From Patescibacteria group bacterium (GTDB lineage Bacteria > Patescibacteriota > Microgenomatia > JAMCZE01), in NCBI GenBank assembly GCA_023485845.1, contig JAMCZE010000010.1:89448-153447 (forward strand): a DNA stretch of 64,000 nucleotides, in the 5' to 3' direction. The translations under genes were made by a program, and so were the position numbers. Positions 30,442-43,269 of the stretch are shown here, piece after piece. The notes under the pieces were generated by a model. It ran no database searches, was not told where the DNA came from, and worked only from the letters and a program-made list of their open reading frames with translations. Positions within the stretch are counted from its first letter, which is position 1. Every line of letters begins with the position of its first letter.

Positions 30442-31152
30442 TTATTTCTCTATTTTATCTTTACTCTGCTGACCCTCAACCCATGCCTCGACTAGGTAGT
30501 CAATGATTATTTTAATACTTCCCACGGCGTCGTCGTTAGCCGGGATGGGATAAGTAACCGGCGTGGGGTCGGTGTTGGTGTCCACCACACCGACAATTGC
30601 CACCCCGGTGCGCATCGCTTCCCGCACGGCTCCGTCTTCCCGTTTAACATCCACAAAAAACACGGCGTCCGGCAATTTTGTCAGCCCCACCAAGCCGCCA
30701 TAGACCCGGGTGTATTTATCCAGCAGCCGTTGGGCCAATAGTTTCTCTTTTTTGGTAACAAACCGGTTCACCTCAATATCCTCGCGCAGTTTTAAAATGG
30801 CATCCAGATTATTCTTTTTCAGAATTTCAAAATTCGTTAAGAGGCCGCCCGGCCAGCGCTCCAATAAATAGTAGAAGTTTTTGTCGGCGCCCACCTTGTT
30901 CTTGGCTTCCTCCACCACGCTCTTGGCCTGCCGTTTTGTCCCGACAAAAAGCACCGAACCGCCGGATTTAGCCAAATCCGAAAGATATTTTGCTGCTGCC
31001 AGCAAACCATCGCGGGTTTTAGCTAAATCAATAATATGAACGCCTTCGCGCTCCCCATAAATATAGCCGGCCGCTTTCGGATGCCAACGATTGGTCTGGT
31101 GCCCAAAATGACACCCGGCCTCTAATAGTTCTTTTAGAGTAATATCTTTCAT
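30442..31152 (-). CDS. rpsB: 30S ribosomal protein S2
   Basis: LLEAGCHFGHQTNRWHPKAAGYIYGER... S2 signature. Confidence 0.9.
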   Translation of the reverse strand: MKDITLKELLEAGCHFGHQTNRWHPKAAGYIYGEREGVHIIDLAKTRDGLLAAAKYLSDLAKSGGSVLFVGTKRQAKSVVEEAKNKVGADKNFYYLLERWPGGLLTNFEILKKNNLDAILKLREDIEVNRFVTKKEKLLAQRLLDKYTRVYGGLVGLTKLPDAVFFVDVKREDGAVREAMRTGVAIVGVVDTNTDPTPVTYPIPANDDAVGSIKIIIDYLVEAWVEGQQSKDKIEK

Positions 31153-31865
31153 ACCTTGCTGATTTTAGCAGCCTCGAAGACATTTTCCAAGAGGCAAGCA
31201 ACAGTGAGAGGACCGACGCCCCCGGGAACGGGAGTGATGGCACCAACGGCCGCCGCCGATGGATCCACTTCCGGTCTGGGTGCTCCACAGTCAATAACAA
31301 TGGCATTCTTTTTAACCATCTCCGCCGTGATTAATCTTTCCTGTCCCGTCGCCACCACCAAGACATCAGCACTTAGTGTTTGCTCTTTCAAATCCGGCGT
31401 GTTCACGTCACAACGGACGACAGACAATCCCATATTCTCCCAATAATCGGCCAGCGGCTTGCCAATTAGTCTCCCCTGGCCCACAATGACAATTGTCTTG
31501 CCCGTCACATCACCGGCGCAAATTAAAACAGCACTGACGGCTGCCGGAAGAAACTTACTTTTACCCGTTAGCCCGTCAACGTCTTTTTCCGGCGGAATCT
31601 GGGCAATCAGTTCGTCAGCCTGGGGATGGGGCAGTTGGACAATAATCCCGTCAGCGGCTAAATCAATTTTATCGGTGACTGTCACGCCAATCCCCACTTC
31701 TTGCCCTCGGGCCATTTTTTGCCGGACGAAAACCGAATCCGGCTGATCCGTCACAATATTTAATTTTGGTCTAATCCCAAGTGTTTGGATCTTAGATTTT
31801 AGATCTTCCAGTTTCTGTGTGGCAATTTTTTTTCCATCAATGATCATATCGGAAACTTTCTGCAA
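31149..31865 (-). CDS. folD: Methylenetetrahydrofolate dehydrogenase/cyclohydrolase FolD (short)
   Basis: NAD(P) Rossmann GKTIVIVGQGRLIGKP and ITPVPGGVGPLT motif. Confidence 0.8.
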   Translation of the reverse strand: MQKVSDMIIDGKKIATQKLEDLKSKIQTLGIRPKLNIVTDQPDSVFVRQKMARGQEVGIGVTVTDKIDLAADGIIVQLPHPQADELIAQIPPEKDVDGLTGKSKFLPAAVSAVLICAGDVTGKTIVIVGQGRLIGKPLADYWENMGLSVVRCDVNTPDLKEQTLSADVLVVATGQERLITAEMVKKNAIVIDCGAPRPEVDPSAAAVGAITPVPGGVGPLTVACLLENVFEAAKISKV

Positions 31866-33064
31866 AGGTCCAACACATCTTTTTTAACCGCCCCGACGGG
31901 ACGGCGGGAGAAAATCACGTCGGCAATCCAGTCTCCGATTAGTTTCATTTCCGGCTCTTTCATTCCCCGGGTGGTGATTGCCGGGGTGCCCAACCGAATC
32001 CCGCTGGAAATTGCCGGCGGCAGCGGGTCATTGGGCACTGCGTTTTTATTGGTCACAATCCCCGCTTCCTCAAGTTTTTCCGCCGTGTCTTTTCCGGTCA
32101 AGCCAAAATTTTTTAAATCAATCATTATCAAATGATTATCCGTCCCGCCAGAAACCAAAGCGATTTTATTTTTAATTATGACCTCCGAGAGGACTTTGGC
32201 GTTAGCAACAATTTGCTTGGCATATGCTCTAAATTCACTTGTTCCTGCTTCTTTAGCCGCCACTGCCATAGCGGCAATCACGTTTTCGTGCGGGCCGCCC
32301 TGCAAACCGGGAAAAACCGCCCGGTCAATTTTAGCGGCCATCTCCTCATTATTCGTCATCAGAATCGCCCCCCGGGGGCCGCGCAAAGTTTTGTGGGTTG
32401 TCGTCATCACCACATCGGCAAACGGAATGGGACTGGGATGAACACCGGCCACCACCAATCCGGCAATGTGGGAAATGTCTGCCAAAAGAATCGCCCCGAC
32501 ACTGTCGGCAATTTTTTTAAATCTTGCAAACTCCAGAACCCGGGGGTAGGACGTCGTTCCACAGACAAGGATCTTTGGCTTTTCGATCAGAACCTGTTCT
32601 TGCAACTTGTCGTAGTTGATCCAACCGTTTTCATCGACCGTGTATTGAACGCTATTAAAATATTTTCCGGAAAAAGTAATTTTCGGATGGCCGTGGGTCA
32701 AGTGCCCGCCAGAAGACAGCGCCATTCCCATAATTTTATCCCCAAGGGCAAGAAGGGCAAAATAGACGGCGGCATTGGCCGGACTGCCGGAATAGGGCTG
32801 GACATTAACAAAGGCAACATTAAAAAGTTTCTTGAACCGGGCAATCGCCAGATTTTCAATGGCATCAATAATGCCGTTGCCTTGGTAGTAGCGCTTTCCC
32901 GGATAACCTTCGGAGTATTTATTGGCCAACACCGAACCAGTCGCCTGCCGCACGGCCGCGGAGACATAGTTTTCCGACGGGATCATCTCCAGCCCTTCCC
33001 GCTGTCTTTTTTCCTCTCGGCCAATCAGTTTGGCAATCTCCGGATCACTTTTCTGAAGTGTCAT
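31844..33064 (-). CDS. glyA: Serine hydroxymethyltransferase
   Basis: PLP-lysine motif TTTHKTLRGPRG, full-length SHMT similarity. Confidence 0.9.
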   Translation of the reverse strand: MTLQKSDPEIAKLIGREEKRQREGLEMIPSENYVSAAVRQATGSVLANKYSEGYPGKRYYQGNGIIDAIENLAIARFKKLFNVAFVNVQPYSGSPANAAVYFALLALGDKIMGMALSSGGHLTHGHPKITFSGKYFNSVQYTVDENGWINYDKLQEQVLIEKPKILVCGTTSYPRVLEFARFKKIADSVGAILLADISHIAGLVVAGVHPSPIPFADVVMTTTHKTLRGPRGAILMTNNEEMAAKIDRAVFPGLQGGPHENVIAAMAVAAKEAGTSEFRAYAKQIVANAKVLSEVIIKNKIALVSGGTDNHLIMIDLKNFGLTGKDTAEKLEEAGIVTNKNAVPNDPLPPAISSGIRLGTPAITTRGMKEPEMKLIGDWIADVIFSRRPVGAVKKDVLDLCRKFPI

Positions 33065-33073
33065 GAAGCAATT

Positions 33074-34285
33074 TTAGCACAAACTTATCCCACCCTGGCT
33101 CCCGAACTCATCTTCAACGGCTTTAAGTATCTCTTCATGAACGGATTCTGGTGATGACATGCCGTTAATCTTAACAACGTTATTGAGCTTTCCTAAAATT
33201 TCTCTATATCTTTTTCGACAACTTTCTATTTTAGCTAGGCTTTCAAATTTGCTGAATGGTTTATTTTCTTCAGTAAGTCTTCTTTCTATCCTCTTTATTG
33301 CCTCCTCCGGCTCAACATCCACCCATAAAATGAGATCCATATCTGGTACGAAAGCGTGCAAGAAACGAACTAAAGCCTCTTCTTGCTTCGTCTCGGCCTC
33401 ATAAACTTGTGTGTCAATCCAACTTCTCACATCAATAACCGTCTCCCCAGCTCTTAATGCAGGCAAAATTTCCTTACTCATAATTCTTCTTCGATCGGCA
33501 ATATAAAAGAACATATCCATAAAGTGATCGTCAATCTCACTTCGCCAACTGGCGAGGGTCGGCTTTGTGTCCGGAGTTGGCTCATGAACTAGCCTAACTT
33601 TTATTCCTTGTTTCCTATACCAGCCAACCAACATCTCAGCTTGGACATCTTTTCCGGAACCGCTTGTTCCCTCTATAACAATATATTTCCCGGTTAATTT
33701 CTCCGTTTCCAGTGAAGTGGGTTCTTCTAAGAGCGACAGAAAAAGTTCAACGAATCGGTATTGCCTTTCCGCTATTTTCTTGCTCTCGGGAAACTCCAAG
33801 CCGGCAATCCTTGCCGGCATTTTCACTCTTAACCGGTGCATAGTTTCTTCCATGGTTTCGCCTCTCTCACCGGACCACAGTAGAGTGCGAAGAATTCCTC
33901 TGGCTCCAAAACCATCCAAAAAGTCAGCCTCTTTGAGAATTTTCCCCTCAATCGTAGAGGGAGTAAATTCCGGTTGGTCATGTTCAGATATTGCTTGGCA
34001 GACAGCATCAATTTTTTCTTTTGGAAAACCAGTTTCTTCAAGAACTAACCTTGCCCGATGGACCGACTCTAAAGCACTTTCTTTCCCTCGCAATTGCTTA
34101 TCTGCTCGACCCAGATCGTGGAGAATAGCTGCAGCAGTAATTATTTCTTCATCGCCGCCATACAATCTCTGGAATCGTAATCCAGTGGCTACGACCCGTT
34201 TTAGATGATCATCCGAGTGGCTTGCTCCCACCACTGCATTGTCCACCCCTTGCCAAAGTTTATTTTCAATTTCTAATCTTTCCAT
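33074..34285 (-). CDS. tmk: Fusion protein: N-terminal HD phosphohydrolase domain, C-terminal thymidylate kinase
   Basis: HD motif (HSDDHLKRV...ILHDLGR) in residues about 1-190. Tmk P-loop IVIEGTSGSGKDV, HEPTP and DRR motifs in residues about 200-403. Confidence 0.7.
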   Translation of the reverse strand: MERLEIENKLWQGVDNAVVGASHSDDHLKRVVATGLRFQRLYGGDEEIITAAAILHDLGRADKQLRGKESALESVHRARLVLEETGFPKEKIDAVCQAISEHDQPEFTPSTIEGKILKEADFLDGFGARGILRTLLWSGERGETMEETMHRLRVKMPARIAGLEFPESKKIAERQYRFVELFLSLLEEPTSLETEKLTGKYIVIEGTSGSGKDVQAEMLVGWYRKQGIKVRLVHEPTPDTKPTLASWRSEIDDHFMDMFFYIADRRRIMSKEILPALRAGETVIDVRSWIDTQVYEAETKQEEALVRFLHAFVPDMDLILWVDVEPEEAIKRIERRLTEENKPFSKFESLAKIESCRKRYREILGKLNNVVKINGMSSPESVHEEILKAVEDEFGSQGGISLC

Positions 34286-34289
34286 CTGA

Positions 34290-35786
34290 TTAATCTTTCT
34301 TCCCTGGCTCCCTTATTCCGCTTGAACCCAAGGGTGAATAATCCCTATAGAAAAAATAACGACAGTTTTCTTCAGTAACTGGCACTTGCGAAAACCCGGA
34401 AATATCAGGAAAAGATTGTAAATCTGGAAAACGGAACCGCCGTTTATCCATTTCTGGTGGCACACCCTCGTGTATAGTAACTTCTTCCCATCGTAGCGGC
34501 AAAGGAATTAAAGGAAAGCGATCCGGGACATCGGAAACAACTACCGTTCTTGCTCGAGAAATTCCCAGTTTATCTGTTAACAAAAATCTATGTAGTCCAT
34601 CTATCAATAGGCATCTATTCCCGTCTGGTCCGGAAACCTCAACCGTAGGTGGAGAAATCACAAAATTCTTTCCCCCCATCCGGAATTCAATCGTCCCCGA
34701 CAGATCAAGAAAATCCAAAGCATAATTCGCCAAAAACAATTTTCTAAGCTTTTCGTGGAGATCAATCTGCCCAGCAAGAGCATAAAGGGAAAGCGGTGCA
34801 ATTTCATCAATGCTTAAGACCTTACTCTCTATTCTTGCTGCCGCATAAGGAAAAAGAGTTGGGTCCCCATTAAGCTTTACTCTTCTTAGAGCTCCTTCCA
34901 ACTCTTCCCAGGGGTGGACTTTTGTAATCTCCAGATCATCAGAAAAATATTCATGCTCAATTAGTTCTAACGTCTCTAAACCTAACTCCGGATGGTATGG
35001 CACTGCATTTCGCTCGCACTCTTTTCTTATTAACTCCTCCGCTTCAAGGTAGCCTTGCCAAGCAATTTTTTTTCCAGTCGCTGTTCTGGCATCCAATAAA
35101 GCTCTTTTGGCAGCCAATCTAACACTTCCCACAATTGATTCTCCCCACATCCATGCCCTCAACGGATCGCCTCTGGCAAACAATGGGAGACTCTGTTCTA
35201 AGTTAAAATCAAATGTTCTTTTGGCGCCGTCAGCTCCTGTCCCTAAACGACTGTCAGCCTCTTTAATAACTGCCAACATTGCTTTTGATCGTGGATCACT
35301 ATCCATCTCCTGCTCTGCCTCTTTCACCCATCCGCGGGTGATAGCAGGACTTCCCCCCCTCCCCTTACTTGGAAACAGATAATTAGTGTTATCGTGATTT
35401 AAAACGAGATATAAAACTTGCTTCAGTCTTTGGGGGTCCTCAGCAAAACCGGGAATCCTCAAAAGAATTTCGTTGGCGATTCTCATACTTTCGTGGACAT
35501 GCTCCCGTTTATCTTCAGACCAATCAACTTTCCTTTGAGAGAAACCAGCATCATGAAGCAGCGCCGCCACCGATAAAGCTGTTAGGTCAAGATCGAGCGA
35601 CGAGTACTCGGGTTCTCGAGCGATTTCCAAAACTAGCCTCTCGGCACTCTTAACATGATCCATCCCATGAATTCTTTCATTAGAAGGATAATAGCAAGCC
35701 ATTTGTTCAGTCACAACTTCACGCCAAGGAGAAAATAAGAGTCTTTGCTTCCTATCTTTTTCAGAAAAATTTTCTGCAACAGTCAT
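34290..35786 (-). CDS. HD-domain protein with about 350-aa uncharacterised C-terminal region
   Basis: HGMDHVKSAERL...LLHDAGF HD signature. Remainder unrecognised. Confidence 0.6.
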   Translation of the reverse strand: MTVAENFSEKDRKQRLLFSPWREVVTEQMACYYPSNERIHGMDHVKSAERLVLEIAREPEYSSLDLDLTALSVAALLHDAGFSQRKVDWSEDKREHVHESMRIANEILLRIPGFAEDPQRLKQVLYLVLNHDNTNYLFPSKGRGGSPAITRGWVKEAEQEMDSDPRSKAMLAVIKEADSRLGTGADGAKRTFDFNLEQSLPLFARGDPLRAWMWGESIVGSVRLAAKRALLDARTATGKKIAWQGYLEAEELIRKECERNAVPYHPELGLETLELIEHEYFSDDLEITKVHPWEELEGALRRVKLNGDPTLFPYAAARIESKVLSIDEIAPLSLYALAGQIDLHEKLRKLFLANYALDFLDLSGTIEFRMGGKNFVISPPTVEVSGPDGNRCLLIDGLHRFLLTDKLGISRARTVVVSDVPDRFPLIPLPLRWEEVTIHEGVPPEMDKRRFRFPDLQSFPDISGFSQVPVTEENCRYFFYRDYSPLGSSGIREPGKKD

Positions 35787-35806
35787 CTCTTCATATCTAA
35801 GTAAAA

Positions 35807-36535
35807 CTACCCCTCATGAATCTTCATTCTTCCATAACGTTCCCTCAATGCTGGAAAAGCTTCCTTTGACCAAAAGGACATTCTCTCAATCAATTTCTCC
35901 GCTTCATCCCAAGTTACAAATTTACCTTCAATTACTCCTTCATCACCACTGTCCTCGAAAATTGCTCTATCCCCAAGATATGCCCAAACAAGACCTGCAT
36001 GGACCATGTTCACCTGGTTTGTTTGTAAATTCACCACCCCAACAAATTCTCGCTTCAAAACAGTTCCGAGGTACCTTGTCTCCTCATTAAATTCTCTCTC
36101 GGCTGCCTTTCCAATATCCACGTCCCCTTCTTCCACATGACCACCAAGAAATATCGGCCATAAATCATGAAGACGATCTTCCGAACCGGTTACTGGAATC
36201 CTATGAACAAAAACCTGATTTTGAGCAATCAATATTACCTGAGGAATAATTTGCTTCCAAGACGGATCATCTTCCACCTCCGCCCGCCGCTTGTATTCAC
36301 CATATCTGTTGATAAGCCCAAAAACTGTCTGAAAATCATCAATGGGGCGAAATCCTTCCCACACTCCGTCCGGGAAAAGCTTATTCGTGGGAACAACTAA
36401 CACCTTTTGTTCAAGTTTATCCATCTCCGGCAATTTAGCTCGGAAGAGATTCTTTTGCAACGGGTCAAAATAGATCAGGAGATCTCCCAGTACTTCTATT
36501 TCCTCAGCAGTCTCAAGAATAATTATAAATCGCAA
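35807..36535 (-). CDS. Nudix hydrolase
   Basis: Nudix box GGHVEEGDVDIGKAAEREFNEETRY. TTG start. Confidence 0.75.
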   Translation of the reverse strand: MRFIIILETAEEIEVLGDLLIYFDPLQKNLFRAKLPEMDKLEQKVLVVPTNKLFPDGVWEGFRPIDDFQTVFGLINRYGEYKRRAEVEDDPSWKQIIPQVILIAQNQVFVHRIPVTGSEDRLHDLWPIFLGGHVEEGDVDIGKAAEREFNEETRYLGTVLKREFVGVVNLQTNQVNMVHAGLVWAYLGDRAIFEDSGDEGVIEGKFVTWDEAEKLIERMSFWSKEAFPALRERYGRMKIHEG

Positions 36536-36681
36536 TCACCTTCTCCAGTTGTTTATCGGAAAGGTGCTTCTTTGTTCTCATAAATCCCTGCATCTGCGGT
36601 GTTATTGTAATCTTCTTCTTGGTTTTATCAATTTTATGTTTCATTCTTTAATTATACATTCCCCGTGATTAATATAATAAC

Positions 36682-37119
36682 ATGACAAGAGTTTCGGCAG
36701 GTTTACTGATGTTTCGAAGATGCGCCAAAGACATCGAGGTTTTTTTAGTCCATCCCGGCGGGCCGTTTTTTGGACGAAGGGACAACGTTTGGGGCATTCC
36801 TAAGGGAGAGCGGCACGATGACGAAGATTTATTAACCTGCGCTAAGCGGGAATTTACTGAAGAAACGGGTATCGATCCTGGGCAAGCGGCAATGACGCCG
36901 CTGGGATCGATTCAATATAACAACAAAACTATTTATTGTTGGACCTTTGAAAAAGATTTGCCAGAAAATTTTAAGCTAAAAAGTAATCTTACACCATATG
37001 GTTGGCCGGAAATTGACAAGGGGGAATTTTTCAATCTCGGTGCCGCCGCTTCCAAAATCCTCCCGGGCCAAAAAATTTTTTTAGAGAGACTATTTGAGTA
37101 TTGCAAAGTTAATAATTAG
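36682..37119 (+). CDS. Nudix hydrolase
   Basis: Nudix box GIPKGERHDDEDLLTCAKREFTEETGI. Confidence 0.75.
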   Translation: MTRVSAGLLMFRRCAKDIEVFLVHPGGPFFGRRDNVWGIPKGERHDDEDLLTCAKREFTEETGIDPGQAAMTPLGSIQYNNKTIYCWTFEKDLPENFKLKSNLTPYGWPEIDKGEFFNLGAAASKILPGQKIFLERLFEYCKVNN

Positions 37120-37136
37120 GATTTACTATCTCCAGG

Positions 37137-37964
37137 ATGACAGGTAACCAAGAATACTCCGGCTCAATTGAGAACCAATACCTTAGTCTTCTTGATGATA
37201 TCCTCACAAACGGATACCAATCCGGTGACCGCACCGGAACCGGGACAAGAAAAGTTTTTGGTCGGACGCTACGAGCTGACCTTACCCAAGGATATCCGCT
37301 TTTAACAACAAAGTCCGTTCATTTCCCTTCAGTGGCCCATGAGTTGATATGGTTCATCAGTGGTAGCACCAACATTAAATATCTCCACGATCGTGGCATC
37401 ACCATTTGGGACGAATGGGCTGATGCAAACGGCGAGGTTGGAAGAATGTATGGTGTCCAGTGGCGCCATTGGGTTGGCCCGGATGGGAAAGAAACCGACC
37501 AACTCCAAAAAGCAATTGATAAAATTCACTCCTCACCAAACGACCGAAGAATTATTGTCTCTGCTTGGAATCCCGCAGAAGTGGATAAGATGGCACTCCC
37601 CCCATGTCATGCCCTTTATCAATTTGATGTTCAAGGAGAAAGACTTTCTTGCGCGATGTTCCAGCGATCTATCGACACATTCCTCGGCCTCCCATTTAAC
37701 ATTGCAAGTTACGCCGCTTTGACAAAAATGATTGCCAGTTTAACAGATCTGACCCCCCACGAATTAATTCTATTTCTTGGAAACACGCACCTTTATCTGA
37801 ATCATCTCGCTCAAGCTAAAATACAACTAGAGAGAGACTCGAGACCACTGCCAAAATTAGAAATTATTCATCACAGAACAAAAATTGATGATTTTGTCTT
37901 TGAAGATTTCAGACTTTTAGACTATAACCCACACCCCAAAATCAGAGCACCAATTTCAAAGTAA
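37137..37964 (+). CDS. thyA: Thymidylate synthase (ThyA, folate-dependent)
   Basis: Near-colinear with E. coli ThyA, including RRIIVSAWNPAEVDKMALPPCHALYQF catalytic Cys region and DRTGTGT. Confidence 0.9.
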   Translation: MTGNQEYSGSIENQYLSLLDDILTNGYQSGDRTGTGTRKVFGRTLRADLTQGYPLLTTKSVHFPSVAHELIWFISGSTNIKYLHDRGITIWDEWADANGEVGRMYGVQWRHWVGPDGKETDQLQKAIDKIHSSPNDRRIIVSAWNPAEVDKMALPPCHALYQFDVQGERLSCAMFQRSIDTFLGLPFNIASYAALTKMIASLTDLTPHELILFLGNTHLYLNHLAQAKIQLERDSRPLPKLEIIHHRTKIDDFVFEDFRLLDYNPHPKIRAPISK

Positions 37965-37968
37965 TGAA

Positions 37969-38631
37969 CTAACACCACATTCTTAGTCTTGGGTGGCCGG
38001 GAACACGATGGTGCAATGGACAGACTGCCTGATACTGTTCTTCGGCTCCAACTACAATAACTTTATCATCGAAGTCCGCTGGTTCACCATCCTTAAACCG
38101 CTGTGTTTGGGTTGCTTTCTTTCCGCAAATTTCGCCAAGAGAAACCTCATAAGAGCAAATGGCAAATCTTCTGTGAACTTTATGCGCCTGTGCTTCCAAT
38201 ATTGGAAAACAACCAAATGGTTCACCTCTAAAATCTGTCGGGAGACCAGTCAAAATCACCCCGATACCGGACTGTGATAATTCCTGAACAACAAATGGCG
38301 TTTCCTCATCAAGGAATTGTGCCTCATCAATGCCAATAATCCTCACTCCTGTCTTTAAATGTTGAAAGATATCTCGCGCCTTATCAACTGATATTGCCGG
38401 ATAGCGTACTCCATTATGTCCTTCTATCTCATCCGCCGCACTACGGGTGTCACCCGTCCATTTAAATGCCTGCACTGTCAGTTTGGCAAAACTGGCAAGT
38501 TCCAGACGGTGAATCATTTCGTTTGTTTTGTCAGCGAACATGGGTCCGCTAATAGCAGTTACTTTCCTTGGGCCTTTTTCTCTATGGTTCTTCATGCGAT
38601 TCACCTTACCCCCCCCAACCAATTTTTTCAA
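37969..38631 (-). CDS. tdk: Thymidine kinase (TK1 type with C-terminal zinc ribbon)
   Basis: GPMFADKTNEMI P-loop, GIDEAQFL, C-terminal Cys/His ribbon (CSYEV...CGKKA...CPLHHR). Confidence 0.85.
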   Translation of the reverse strand: MKKLVGGGKVNRMKNHREKGPRKVTAISGPMFADKTNEMIHRLELASFAKLTVQAFKWTGDTRSAADEIEGHNGVRYPAISVDKARDIFQHLKTGVRIIGIDEAQFLDEETPFVVQELSQSGIGVILTGLPTDFRGEPFGCFPILEAQAHKVHRRFAICSYEVSLGEICGKKATQTQRFKDGEPADFDDKVIVVGAEEQYQAVCPLHHRVPGHPRLRMWC

Positions 38632-38646
38632 CTAGATCTTTATAGG

Positions 38647-39078
38647 TCAATGGTAACCGGTTGTTCCCAACATTCCACGGGACCTCTTTGCCCGCATCTT
38701 GTCAACTTCCTCAAACTGCGCAATAGCTATTCGAACAAAAATTCCCTGGGCAATTCTGGTGCCGGACGCAATTTCCACCTCTTTATCGGTGATGTTTAAC
38801 GCTTGGATGTGAATCTCGTCCTTATCACCGGAAAAATCCTGATCGACAATACCGGGAATTATCATTAATCCAAATTTATGTGCAGTAGATCCCCGACTAT
38901 TAACCAGAAGAAAATGCCCCTTGGGAACAGCAACAGCAATATTTGCCGGCACCACCCTAAACTCACGTGGGGCAAATTTTTCATTGTTCCGAAGACTTAA
39001 ATCAAAACCCACTGCCCCGGGAGTTTTATATCCCGGCAGCGGTAAATTTTTATCAAACCTTTTTACCTCAATTTTCAT
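38647..39078 (-). CDS. dut: dUTPase / dCTP-deaminase-fold protein
   Basis: GFDLSL, RSS-like and GIVDQDFSGD motifs typical of the trimeric dUTPase fold. Confidence 0.7.
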   Translation of the reverse strand: MKIEVKRFDKNLPLPGYKTPGAVGFDLSLRNNEKFAPREFRVVPANIAVAVPKGHFLLVNSRGSTAHKFGLMIIPGIVDQDFSGDKDEIHIQALNITDKEVEIASGTRIAQGIFVRIAIAQFEEVDKMRAKRSRGMLGTTGYH

Positions 39079-39331: not shown

Positions 39332-41239
39332 TTATTTGGGTTTTGTCCAGGAGGCAAAATCACAATCTGGGTAGCGGGAGCAGCCATAGAAGGACCTTTT
39401 GCTGCGAGTCTTTCTGATAATCACGTCGCCCTGGCCGCACTTCGGGCATTTCATTTCCAACTTTTGCTGGAACGCCTTAGTGAATTTGCAATCAGGAAAT
39501 TTGCTGCAGGCCAAAAACTTGCCGAACCGGCCGAGGCGCACCACCAGCGGCGCCCCATCGTTGGGGCAGACCTCATTGGTCGTTTCCACGGCCACTTTCA
39601 CCCGGGCGGCTGTTTCCCCGACTTCTTCCAATTGCTTGGCAAAGGGCTCGTAAAACTCACGGATGACCGGAACCCACTTAACTTCCCCGTTGGCAATCTG
39701 GTCCAGCTCATCTTCCATTTTAGCCGTGAACTGATAGTCCAGGATATTAGAAAAATTAGTCATGAGGAAATCCGTCACCGCATCACCCAACGTTGTCGGC
39801 AACAGTTTCTTGTCGGTCTTTTCCACATACTGACGGTCCTGGATGGTGGAGATAATCGGGGCATAAGTGGACGGCCGGCCGATGCCATATTCCTCCAGGG
39901 TCTTAATCAAGGACGCTTCCGTGTATCTTGTCGGGGGCTCAGTGTAATGCTGACTGGGAACAAGTTCCAATAATTTTAAAATTTGTCCCGTTGTTAATGT
40001 CGGCAACTCCGTTCCCTCATCTCGGACAAATAATTTCTGCCAGCCGTCAAACACCTGCTTATTGCCATTGGCTCGAAATAAATAGTCACCGGCTTTAATG
40101 TCCACCCCCGTTTGTTCATAAACGGCCTCGGCCATTTGACAGGCCACGAACCGATTCCAGATTAATTCATAAAGCCGCTTTTGATCCCTATCTAGTCCCT
40201 GATCCCTAGAACCTAGAACCTGGGTGGGTCTGATTGCTTCGTGCGCCTCTTGGGCCACTTTTGATTTGGTTTTGAAAAAACGCGCCGCCGCCGGCAGATG
40301 GTTTTGACCATATTGGCTGGAAATAAACTGACGGACAGCATCAACGGCGGCCGCCGCCAGATTTAAAGAATCGGTGCGGTGATAGGTGATCAGTCCCTGC
40401 TCATAAAGATTCTGGGCAATTTGCATCGTCCGGCGGGCACTCCAACCAAAAAGATTGCTGGCCGCCTGTTGCAAGGTGCTGGTGGTGAACGGCGGATAAG
40501 GTGATTTTTTAATCTCTCTTTTCTCCACCGTCTCCACCCTAAACTCGGCCGTCTTTAGGCCTTCAATTATTTTATCGGCCTCTTCTTTATTTTTAATTTC
40601 CGTTTTTGTCAGCTTGGCCTCAAAACCGGCAAATTTGGCCATTATTTCCCAATATTCCTGCGGGGCAAACGCTTTAATCTCCCGTTCCCGTTCCACAACG
40701 AGGCGAACCGCCACCGACTGCACCCGGCCGGCGGACATCCCTTTGCGCACTTTGCGCCAAAGCAGGGGTGAGAGTTTATAGCCCACTAACCGGTCCAGAA
40801 TCCGACGCGCCTGTTGGGCGTCAACCAAGGGCATATTAATTTCTCCAGGGTGGGCCAGGGCCTCTTTAATCGCGCTCTCGGTAATTTCATGGAAAGTTAT
40901 CCTCTGAAAATCTGGTGATCGTCTGGTTTTCATCTGGTTATCTGATAGTGTCTGTGCCAAGTGCCACGCGATCGCTTCTCCTTCCCGATCCGGATCGGTG
41001 GCCAGAATCACCGATTTGGTTTTTTTGGCCGCCGCCTCCAACTTGGCCACAGTTTCTTTATGCTTGGCGGAAACAACATAGGTGGGCGCAAACTCGTGCT
41101 CTATGTCAATTCCTAACTTGCTCTTAGGAAGGTCCCGAACATGGCCCATTGACGCTTCAATTTGGTAGCCCTCACCCAAAAATCGCGCCAGCGTCTTCGC
41201 CTTGGTTGGCGACTCAACAATTATCAGGTCCATAGCCAT
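39332..41239 (-). CDS. topA: DNA topoisomerase I
   Basis: Toprim N-terminus LIIVESPTKAKTL, catalytic Tyr region, C-terminal zinc ribbons. Confidence 0.9.
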   Translation of the reverse strand: MAMDLIIVESPTKAKTLARFLGEGYQIEASMGHVRDLPKSKLGIDIEHEFAPTYVVSAKHKETVAKLEAAAKKTKSVILATDPDREGEAIAWHLAQTLSDNQMKTRRSPDFQRITFHEITESAIKEALAHPGEINMPLVDAQQARRILDRLVGYKLSPLLWRKVRKGMSAGRVQSVAVRLVVEREREIKAFAPQEYWEIMAKFAGFEAKLTKTEIKNKEEADKIIEGLKTAEFRVETVEKREIKKSPYPPFTTSTLQQAASNLFGWSARRTMQIAQNLYEQGLITYHRTDSLNLAAAAVDAVRQFISSQYGQNHLPAAARFFKTKSKVAQEAHEAIRPTQVLGSRDQGLDRDQKRLYELIWNRFVACQMAEAVYEQTGVDIKAGDYLFRANGNKQVFDGWQKLFVRDEGTELPTLTTGQILKLLELVPSQHYTEPPTRYTEASLIKTLEEYGIGRPSTYAPIISTIQDRQYVEKTDKKLLPTTLGDAVTDFLMTNFSNILDYQFTAKMEDELDQIANGEVKWVPVIREFYEPFAKQLEEVGETAARVKVAVETTNEVCPNDGAPLVVRLGRFGKFLACSKFPDCKFTKAFQQKLEMKCPKCGQGDVIIRKTRSKRSFYGCSRYPDCDFASWTKPK

Positions 41240-42654: not shown

Positions 42655-43269
42655 TCACAAAATCTTTACAGCCCCTTGCGCAATTAAATAGTCACAGCCG
42701 GGGGATCCCGGGACAGCGAGGACTTCGCGGCCTTGATCCAGAGCAAGTCGGGCGGTGATCAGCGCTCCGGATTTGAGCGGGGCTTCAATCACAATCACTG
42801 CTTGGGACAATCCCGAGATGATCCGGTTGCGGGCCGGGAACAGTTCCCGACTGACCCGCCGCCCGGGCGGCACTTCGGCGATAATCGCCCCACCGTGGGC
42901 GAGAATACTATTATATAGTTCCCGGTGCTGGGGCGGATAAACCACGTCCACCCCGGCGCCCAAAACGGCGATGGTTTGGCCATTGTTTTCAATCGCCGTT
43001 TGATGCGCCACCCCATCAATGCCCAAGGCCATGCCAGAACAAATTATAAATCTTTGTTTCACCAGCTCTTTAGTTATTTTCGCAGTATTTTTTTCTCCTT
43101 TTTTTGTCATTTTTCTTGTTCCCACTATGGCAATAATTTTCCCAGTGACTAACTTCCTCACTTCCTCACTTCCTAACTGGCTTTTAACGTATAGTGTTTT
43201 CGGCGGACAAAAAATATTTTTAAGCTGGGGCGGATAGCCTGCATCAGTGATTTTAAGAACTTCTACCAC
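42655..43269 (-). CDS. dprA: DNA-processing protein DprA/Smf (Rossmann core only)
   Basis: IAIVGTRKMT...GMALGIDGVAHQTAIENNGQTIAVLGAGVDVVYP signature. Confidence 0.8.
   Translation of the reverse strand: MVEVLKITDAGYPPQLKNIFCPPKTLYVKSQLGSEEVRKLVTGKIIAIVGTRKMTKKGEKNTAKITKELVKQRFIICSGMALGIDGVAHQTAIENNGQTIAVLGAGVDVVYPPQHRELYNSILAHGGAIIAEVPPGRRVSRELFPARNRIISGLSQAVIVIEAPLKSGALITARLALDQGREVLAVPGSPGCDYLIAQGAVKIL

Follow-up and report, generated by a model that had tools for sequence, protein, structure and literature searches.

Cells cannot do without a supply of deoxythymidine triphosphate (dTTP), and thymidylate kinase is a target for drugs. Covalent pairing of a kinase with a phosphatase, or of a synthetase with a hydrolase, is familiar from bifunctional switches such as PFK-2/FBPase-2 and Rel/SpoT, the latter with an HD hydrolase domain, and SbnI and SerK are free serine kinases of the ParB/sulfiredoxin (Srx) fold. 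Among HD phosphohydrolases, YpgQ is a Mn-dependent pyrophosphohydrolase of (deoxy)nucleoside triphosphates, (d)NTPs (PMC8177086), and PenF, which has a YpgQ-like structure and the same H..HD..D site, is a nucleoside 5′-monophosphatase preferring ara-AMP over dAMP (PMC11592144). In Escherichia coli and Trypanosoma brucei, an HD nucleotidase lies upstream of thymidine kinase (TK), thymidylate synthase (ThyA) and thymidylate kinase (Tmk) in the deoxycytidine/deoxyuridine route (PMC5098729). HD-Pnk of Runella slithyformis is described (PMC6097658, citing Munir & Shuman 2017) as an N-terminal HD phosphoesterase followed by a C-terminal P-loop kinase that functions in end healing. Here we describe a gene, designated HD1-Tmk2, which joins an HD phosphohydrolase domain to a kinase domain of the Tmk family. 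It is located in a stretch of 64,000 nucleotides from a Patescibacteria group bacterium (assembly GCA_023485845.1, contig JAMCZE010000010.1, positions 89,448 to 153,447); this entire stretch is hereafter called the window. We favour, at a probability of roughly 0.45, the view that the product is a bifunctional enzyme serving the metabolism of pyrimidine deoxynucleotides (thymidylate), and that it acts by coupling within one pathway.

A conserved HD-Tmk fusion

The HD1-Tmk2 gene (33074..34285, minus strand) is a single unbroken open reading frame (ORF) with an ATG start, encoding 403 residues. Its N-terminal half includes GASHSDDHLKRV, AAAILHDLGRAD and KEADFLDGFGARG, and its C-terminal half KYIVIEGTSGSGKDVQ, HEPT and IADRRR. 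In Pfam searches, residues 26-124 match the HD family (PF01966; E = 5.8e-10; score 39.9 bits, cutoff 22), and residues 204-386 cover positions 1-185 of the 185-position Thymidylate_kin profile (PF02223; E = 1.6e-22, 80.5 bits against 27), whereas the NCBIfam model for dTMP kinase, TIGR00041, is passed only marginally (84.2 bits, cutoff 83.25). Among 5.8 billion protein clusters, 111 relatives were identified, almost all of them 390-430 residues long and with both Pfam domains; 106 full-length homologues (380-450 residues), all with HD preceding Tmk, make up the alignment to which the residue conservation given below refers. The AlphaFold2 model built with this alignment as input has a predicted local distance difference test score (pLDDT) of 95.5 and a predicted template modelling score (pTM) of 0.87; it is confident through the linker (block pLDDT 88-95 around residues 181-200) and depicts two rigidly joined domains. 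Furthermore, an identical 403-residue protein is present in two records of metagenome-assembled genomes (MAGs), MCL4390094.1 and MCL5432186.1, where it is labelled 'dTMP kinase' of a Patescibacteria group bacterium.

Given the common domain order of the 106 homologues, the duplicate MAG records and the confident linker model, HD1-Tmk2 is a true conserved two-domain fusion rather than an artefact of assembly or frameshift. The covalent HD-Tmk fusion proposed in the original prediction, which was made from the bare sequence and flagged the junction as a possible artefact, is thereby upheld. A chimeric assembly, or a fusion by stop-codon loss that left a decaying gene with one dead domain, could be suspected from V214, D291 and E296 in the window protein, where relatives have Thr, Ser and Gln, respectively (of these three departures from the family, T214V, S291D and Q296E, only the last is common to a few close relatives), and from one Chloroflexia MAG in which HD1-Tmk2 is frameshift-split. 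Nevertheless, we rule this reading out as exceedingly improbable, because the architecture recurs in homologues across many phyla, with invariant catalytic residues kept in both halves, the identical protein comes from two independent MAG records and the structure model is confident. The split Chloroflexia gene (locus L025, 10025-11124) consists of two overlapping ORFs and likely reflects a frameshift or sequencing error.

The N-terminal domain, HD1 (residues 1-192; 33710..34285, minus strand), is assigned by Pfam and PDB profile matches to the YedJ/YpgQ/PenF class of HD phosphohydrolases. The best matches among solved proteins, several structural-genomics HD hydrolases being among them, include YedJ (3gw7, E = 3e-13), 2pq7 (1.6e-10), 3djb (4e-9) and 3b57 (1.2e-8), and residues 13-187 align with Bacillus subtilis YpgQ (5dqv; E = 1.3e-8 over 175 residues), such that H27, H56-D57 and D121 of HD1 fall on H29, H58-D59 and D124 of YpgQ. 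These metal ligands are invariant in all 106 sequences, leaving the HD metal site complete, as are H23, R60, G127, R133, E140 and R159; a second dyad, H102-D103 (E-H102-D103-Q-P), is near-invariant, being kept in at least 90%. On the E. coli YedJ equivalog NF007515, HD1 scores 51.8 bits, far short of the cutoff of 286, and is therefore no YedJ orthologue. We propose, from this conservation, that HD1 is a catalytically active member of its class and works as a metal-dependent phosphohydrolase on nucleotides; because the YedJ/YpgQ/PenF class spans pyrophosphohydrolase and 5′-monophosphatase, its chemistry is not decided by sequence alone. The HD domain had originally been taken for the YfbR type, with dephosphorylation of deoxynucleoside monophosphates (dNMPs) as its expected activity. 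The type assignment has to be abandoned: the YfbR-like/HD_3 models PF12917 and PF13023 match neither the whole protein (E ≤ 0.1) nor the HD half alone (E ≤ 10), whereas genuine YfbR-like genes in two related loci, L001 and L003, do match them, and the relatives found are YedJ and YpgQ. Dephosphorylation of dNMPs is possible, with PenF as the precedent, but is not implied, given that YpgQ is a (d)NTP pyrophosphohydrolase.

The C-terminal domain, Tmk2 (residues 197-393; 33107..33697, minus strand), is identified by Pfam, TIGR00041 and Foldseek as a divergent P-loop kinase of the Tmk family; in the Foldseek comparison of the C-terminal half with PDB, all of the top 50 matches are Tmk (target TM scores 0.76-0.86), the closest solved Tmk structures reaching 0.83-0.86. 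G206, S208, G211, K212 and R287 are invariant, R265, Y295, R332 and R336 are kept in at least 95%, and T214, D264 and Q296 in at least 90% of the homologues; R332 and R336, the arginines of the LID region as in bacterial type II enzymes, occur in 105 and 101 of the 106, respectively. With the catalytic residues kept throughout the alignment, both active sites of the fusion appear intact, as had been predicted. Several motifs nonetheless set Tmk2 apart from the canonical Tmk of related genomes. The P-loop reads EGISGxGK[DE]TQ (EGTSGSGKDV in the window protein, with G206-K212) rather than EGGEGAGKSIQ, the acceptor-phosphate motif [HFNS][EH]P[TS] rather than TREPGGT, the A-x-R motif LLLADR rather than AASRAQ and the DRY region ISxR[SN]xxSxxVYQ rather than CDRYVDSSIAYQ; the LID of Tmk2 conforms to RIxxRxxxTGExxGxFE. 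In 80 of 106 sequences the residue after the P-loop lysine is Asp or Glu (D213 in the window protein) instead of Ser or Thr, and the window protein has VHEPTP in place of REPGG(T). The Asp before R287, expected from the DR(Y/H/F) motif, is present in 19 of 106 (V286 in the window protein, with D285 one position earlier), and R287 is followed in the Tmk2 clade by Ser or Asn, not by the aromatic residue. Chloroflexi-type fused members, by contrast, retain GK[ST]T and DR. On TIGR00041, canonical Tmk of related genomes score 176-206 bits and standalone Tmk2 approximately 94. Thus, the description of the C-terminal half as a complete Tmk holds for the profile coverage and the fold, but the domain belongs to a divergent paralogue clade with altered acceptor-site motifs.

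Few Tmk-like proteins have this architecture, yet those that do form an old conserved family. An exhaustive HMMER search through 1.84 billion representatives at 50% identity yielded 491 matches below 1e-30 to the two-domain profile, with about 55-60 full-length fusions among the top matches, followed by standalone proteins of the HD1 type (~195 residues) and the Tmk2 type (~200 residues). At E ≤ 1e-10 there are about 25,000 matches, both single-domain classes included, most of them presumably Tmk-like, and against this number the fusion is indeed unusual, as originally suggested. A scan in which each GTDB species was represented by a single genome located it in Roizmanbacteria, Levybacteria, Dojkabacteria and other Patescibacteria, as well as in Anaerolineae, other Chloroflexota and one Zixibacteria genome. 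Six contigs that carry this gene of Patescibacteria/Chloroflexi type are assigned in some co-assembly MAGs to Nitrosopumilales, Pseudomonadales or Gammaproteobacteria; their labels need caution, because mis-binning is probable. Proteins with tandem Tmk-Tmk or Tmk-Tmk-HD domains (P0216, P0219, P0246 and P0270), considered as fusions of Tmk2 with canonical Tmk, proved instead to belong to other Tmk lineages. Two of them, P0246 (650 residues) and P0270 (696 residues), have a tandem pair of Tmk-like domains followed at the C terminus by an HD domain of the Ppx/GppA-domain-III or 'HD-CE' type; since these unrelated Tmk lineages are fused to a different HD type, the association of Tmk with HD arose more than once.

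The thymidylate cluster and the ParB-CE partner

HD1-Tmk2 is at the centre of an operon-like thymidylate cluster (window positions 31149-39078), in which Dut, TK, ThyA, GlyA and FolD all lie within 8 kb around the fusion. Upstream, the minus strand encodes dUTPase (Dut, 38647..39078; Pfam dUTPase, E = 5.5e-21), a TK of the TK1 type (37969..38631; Pfam TK, E = 3.8e-31), a Nudix hydrolase (35807..36535; Pfam NUDIX, E = 1.8e-8) and, 20 nt behind the latter, a 498-residue protein, HD2-ParB-CE (34290..35786; Pfam Parb-CE PF24392, E = 1e-8, plus HD), whose gene is separated from the HD1-Tmk2 start by 4 nt. ThyA (37137..37964; Pfam Thymidylat_synt, E = 4.6e-109) and a second Nudix hydrolase (36682..37119; Pfam NUDIX, E = 6.7e-11) are on the plus strand. 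Serine hydroxymethyltransferase GlyA (31844..33064, minus strand; Pfam SHMT, E = 2.8e-155) begins 9 nt past the HD1-Tmk2 stop, and its 3′ end overlaps by 22 nt the gene for FolD, the methylene-tetrahydrofolate dehydrogenase/cyclohydrolase (31149..31865, minus strand; Pfam THF_DHG_CYH_C, E = 1.8e-33), which is followed downstream by rpsB, tsf and frr. The gaps of 20, 4 and 9 nt and the FolD/GlyA overlap in this minus-strand run point to one transcription unit. Neither dihydrofolate reductase (DHFR), a cytidine or dCMP deaminase nor Ndk was seen among the window ORFs scanned. FolD is short (238 residues), and its N-terminal catalytic domain matches only Pfam profile positions 1-61 of 115, which may mean that this cyclohydrolase/dehydrogenase is truncated or divergent. 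The nucleotide cluster is flanked by topoisomerase I (39332-41239, minus strand) and DprA (42655-43269, minus strand), and the left edge of locus L003 has a similar TopA-to-nucleotide-gene arrangement.

The product of the gene adjoining HD1-Tmk2 also consists of two domains. Its HD2 domain (residues 1-267, about 34986-35786, minus strand) is an HD1 paralogue: hhalign aligns the two over the whole domain (98%, E = 8e-14), and H131-D132 of HD2 is the counterpart of the second HD1 dyad H102-D103. ParB-CE (residues 271-497, about 34296-34976, minus strand) is recognized by Pfam and structure matches as a ParB/sulfiredoxin-fold domain with an invariant DGxHR. The AlphaFold2 model of HD2-ParB-CE (pLDDT 91.5, pTM 0.89) resembles YpgQ, YedJ and similar structures in its HD half, and its C-terminal half resembles ParB/sulfiredoxin-domain proteins of a viral structure library (probability 0.9-1.0 over 100-125 columns). 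Against PDB, the ParB-CE profile finds only SbnI (E = 0.012, a weak match) and Noc (E = 0.49), in both cases via the DGxHR core. Its invariant Arg and Lys residues, which include K448, R449, R452, R481 and R492, would be consistent with binding of a nucleotide or phosphate. One MAG record has HD2-ParB-CE annotated as two pieces, MCL4390093.1 (338 residues) and MCL4390092.1 (162 residues), and the other has it at full length (MCL5432187.1).

Across 23 distinct loci with fused HD1-Tmk2, a ParB-CE gene is the immediate neighbour in 17, and 10 of these 17 genes are HD2+ParB-CE fusions of about 500 residues; the corresponding place is taken by TK in four of the remaining loci, by canonical Tmk in one and by none of these in another. 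The same domains also recur in other combinations: Tmk2, HD1 and ParB-CE are three separate adjoining genes in L034, HD1 is fused to ParB-CE in P0228, standalone HD2 precedes Tmk2 and TK in L035 and L036, and in a Woesearchaeota MAG (L047, 9363-11146) ParB-CE stands directly before a Tmk2 that is fused to a C-terminal HAD/PNK3P-like phosphatase, so that a different phosphatase fold stands in place of the HD domain. The frequent company of ParB-CE, both as a separate gene and in these other fusions, supports the existence of a module. A standalone HD1 locus (L026) has an uninformative gene context.

The wider neighbourhoods are those of thymidylate metabolism. L001 and L003 encode dCMP deaminase, ThyA, a YfbR-like HD protein, DHFR, HD1-Tmk2, ParB-CE and a phosphoribosyltransferase-like gene, followed by the genes of de novo pyrimidine synthesis. 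The conserved gene of 351-354 codons right behind ParB-CE (L001 9961-11025; L003 9953-11008) has a weak phosphoribosyltransferase (UPRTase) motif at E = 2-3e-5, below the Pfam cutoff, and bears no other annotation. Roizmanbacteria have the order HAD, HD1-Tmk2 overlapping TK, a 261-codon gene and Nudix; comparison showed that neither this 261-residue neighbour nor the 354-residue one of L001 is a divergent ParB-CE. In Gottesmanbacteria and related Microgenomates, standalone Tmk2 is directly followed by canonical Tmk and then TK, with GlyA a few kb downstream; this string was seen in 10 loci of about 10 kb each. In L011, it is the fused HD1-Tmk2 that is followed by canonical Tmk. Because canonical Tmk adjoins Tmk2 in these Microgenomates and in L011, Tmk2 is a paralogue clade that is able to coexist with the housekeeping enzyme, and in view of such coexistence in many relatives dTMP is a plausible, not an established, substrate of Tmk2. 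However, no second Tmk is present within the 64-kb window and no canonical Tmk in the flanks (3-10 kb on each side) of 22 of the 23 fused loci, where Tmk2 may thus be the sole Tmk; a protein search for canonical Tmks returned only those of the Gottesmanbacteria type.

Candidate functions of the fusion

If HD1-Tmk2 couples steps of thymidylate metabolism, its two halves would act on different intermediates of one pathway without undoing each other. Tmk2, as a P-loop kinase, would most likely phosphorylate dTMP, or a very close pyrimidine dNMP, with ATP to the diphosphate and thereby commit dTMP towards dTTP. HD1 could supply or clean precursors, for instance by converting (d)NTPs or (d)NDPs to (d)NMPs, or might alternatively dephosphorylate dCMP or dUMP to nucleosides that TK and ThyA re-enter into the pathway. 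The enzyme would work in a conserved module with ParB-CE, which is often itself fused to HD2. We infer these substrates, the direction of flux and the cooperation with ParB-CE; pathway coupling is favoured by the thymidylate genes that stand beside the fusion in the window, in L001 and L003 and in Roizmanbacteria, and beside standalone Tmk2 in Gottesmanbacteria, and by the precedent of an HD nucleotidase ahead of TK, ThyA and Tmk in one route (PMC5098729). Several observations weigh on the other side. Canonical Tmk coexists with a kinase of the Tmk2 clade at no fewer than 11 loci, the substrate-site motifs are altered (REPGG, the Asp of DR[YF] and the acidic residue after the P-loop lysine), and residue 214, a threonine in 102 of the 106 homologues, is valine in the window protein. 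Dut and two Nudix hydrolases in the window lessen the need for a further NTP pyrophosphohydrolase, just as two YfbR-like nucleotidases in L001 lessen that for another nucleotidase. Moreover, the repeated pairing of Tmk2 with phosphatases (HD1, HD2 and HAD) is also expected if the two activities are antagonistic.

Such antagonism would be that of a switch, in which HD1 dephosphorylates the substrate or product of the kinase itself (dTMP to thymidine, or dTDP and dTTP to dTMP) and so sets the dTTP pool through a regulated substrate cycle like those of PFK-2/FBPase-2 or Rel/SpoT. The activity of PenF on dAMP and ara-AMP (PMC11592144) provides a YpgQ/YedJ-like precedent for this chemistry, the adjoining TK makes a TK/nucleotidase cycle possible, and Tmk2 is repeatedly brought together with phosphatases: it is fused to HD1 in 106 homologues and to the HAD/PNK3P-like domain in L047, it lies beside standalone HD2 in L035 and L036, and a HAD gene is directly upstream in Roizmanbacteria. 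The modelled arrangement (pTM 0.87) suggests fixed domains that could allow reciprocal regulation. Yet the HD class also includes the NTP pyrophosphohydrolase YpgQ, opposing activities fused without regulation would waste ATP, and neither a regulatory domain nor a ligand site was identified in HD1-Tmk2; we regard the switch as unlikely. The opposing activities envisaged in the original prediction survive as one reading, which the context of TK, ThyA, Dut, GlyA, FolD and ParB-CE does not single out, as pathway coupling fits it at least equally well. It is also somewhat unlikely that Tmk2 is a kinase for something other than dTMP (for example dUMP or dCMP, dTDP on the way to dTTP, or a non-canonical or 3′-phosphorylated deoxynucleotide), serving a separate HD1/HD2/ParB-Srx pathway that merely neighbours thymidylate genes. 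The systematic alteration of the acceptor-site motifs would be explained in this way, and so would the 10 loci in which standalone Tmk2 directly precedes canonical Tmk and TK, the fused arrangement of L011 and the lineage-by-lineage occupation of the slot beside Tmk2 by ParB-CE, TK or canonical Tmk; the match of ParB-CE to the serine kinase SbnI hints at a small-molecule kinase as partner. On the other hand, that match is weak, canonical Tmk is missing from the flanks of nearly all fused loci, R265, Y295 and S/T-x-x-VYQ match dTMP-binding elements of canonical Tmk, and Chloroflexi-type fused members retain GK[ST]T and DR.

Two further readings concern the partner protein and nucleic acids. HD1-Tmk2 and (HD2-)ParB-CE might together constitute a four-domain nucleotide-phosphorylation module, spread over Patescibacteria, Chloroflexota, Zixibacteria and DPANN-type archaea, in which ParB-CE would be a new (deoxy)nucleoside or nucleotide kinase and the paired HD domains would have the task of gating or proofreading flux, providing an alternative dTTP route in reduced genomes. 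ParB-CE sits in the genomic slot held in other lineages by TK or canonical Tmk, but the proposal as a whole is distinctly doubtful. Nucleic-acid end healing, with the HD domain as a 2′,3′-phosphoesterase and the P-loop domain as a 5′-OH polynucleotide kinase, has in its favour the domain order of Runella HD-Pnk (PMC6097658), the one relative in which Tmk2 is fused to a PNK3P-like HAD phosphatase and a ParB-like partner that could bind DNA. It is nonetheless most improbable, given that the kinase is of the Tmk type, not the Pnk type, by sequence and fold, that ligase, Hen1 and Tpt1 are absent from the neighbourhood and that all neighbours are small-molecule thymidylate enzymes. An anti-phage defence role, suggested by the Pfam 'CE' names, was rejected: the context is housekeeping, and among the PADLOC defence models the only match was a weak one of the kinase half to PDC-M51B (E = 6.7e-8), with none for the ParB-CE protein.

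Significance and relation to known systems

We found no paper describing the HD-Tmk fusion or its link to ParB-CE, and databases label HD1-Tmk2 merely 'dTMP kinase'. Because the fusion is accompanied at most loci by an uncharacterised ParB/sulfiredoxin-fold partner, it points to a so far unstudied module in the metabolism of DNA precursors. In large uncultured groups, namely Patescibacteria (candidate phyla radiation) and many Chloroflexota, the annotation 'dTMP kinase' thus stands for two enzymes joined in one protein, whose kinase is a divergent paralogue of Tmk. If these organisms have no Tmk besides the fusion, their thymidylate synthesis and salvage would be organised differently in the final steps; if it is a second kinase beside canonical Tmk, a nucleotide-handling function would be hidden under a routine annotation. 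The pairing of Tmk2 with phosphohydrolases of different folds (HD1, HD2 and HAD) raises the testable idea of control or sanitation of deoxynucleotide pools in minimal cells, and the upside would be greatest for the four-domain module, with ParB-CE as a possible new small-molecule kinase.

Among known systems, canonical Tmk (EC 2.7.4.9; PF02223/TIGR00041) shares with Tmk2 the fold, the TK and ThyA neighbourhood, the P-loop lysine, R287, the LID residues R332 and R336, R265 of the A-D-R motif and S/T-x-x-(V/A)-Y-Q. It differs in that the window Tmk2 is fused to an N-terminal HD domain and reaches only 84 bits on TIGR00041, and in that Tmk2 has lost the Arg of REPGG and mostly the Asp of DRY, carries an acidic residue after the P-loop lysine and coexists with canonical Tmk in many Microgenomates. 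The characterised members of the YedJ/YpgQ/PenF class act on nucleotides (PMC8177086, PMC11592144), and HD1 can be aligned with them over the whole domain, including the H..HD..D ligands and the G-A-x-G-I-x-R helix; what distinguishes HD1 is the fusion to a kinase, together with the family-specific second dyad E-H102-D103-Q-P and R60, both of which YpgQ lacks. The 5′-deoxynucleotidases YfbR and HDDC2 belong to the same HD superfamily and work upstream of TK and ThyA in the metabolism of deoxypyrimidines (PMC5098729), and true YfbR-like genes occur within the L001 and L003 clusters that carry HD1-Tmk2; however, HD1, matching neither PF12917 nor PF13023, represents another HD subfamily. HD-Pnk (PMC6097658) has in common with HD1-Tmk2 the order of an N-terminal HD domain and a C-terminal P-loop kinase, whereas the kinase of HD1-Tmk2 is of the Tmk type and its context is thymidylate metabolism instead of a ligase/Tpt1 repair cassette. 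PFK-2/FBPase-2 and Rel/SpoT offer a general analogy, in that a phosphoryl-transferring domain is covalently paired with a phosphohydrolase domain, but the kinase part of HD1-Tmk2 is non-homologous to theirs and antagonism on one metabolite is only hypothetical here. Finally, SbnI and SerK resemble ParB-CE in the DGxHR ParB/Srx core, SbnI being its best, albeit weak, PDB profile match, and ParB-CE is set apart from both by a large C-terminal extension rich in invariant Arg and Lys.

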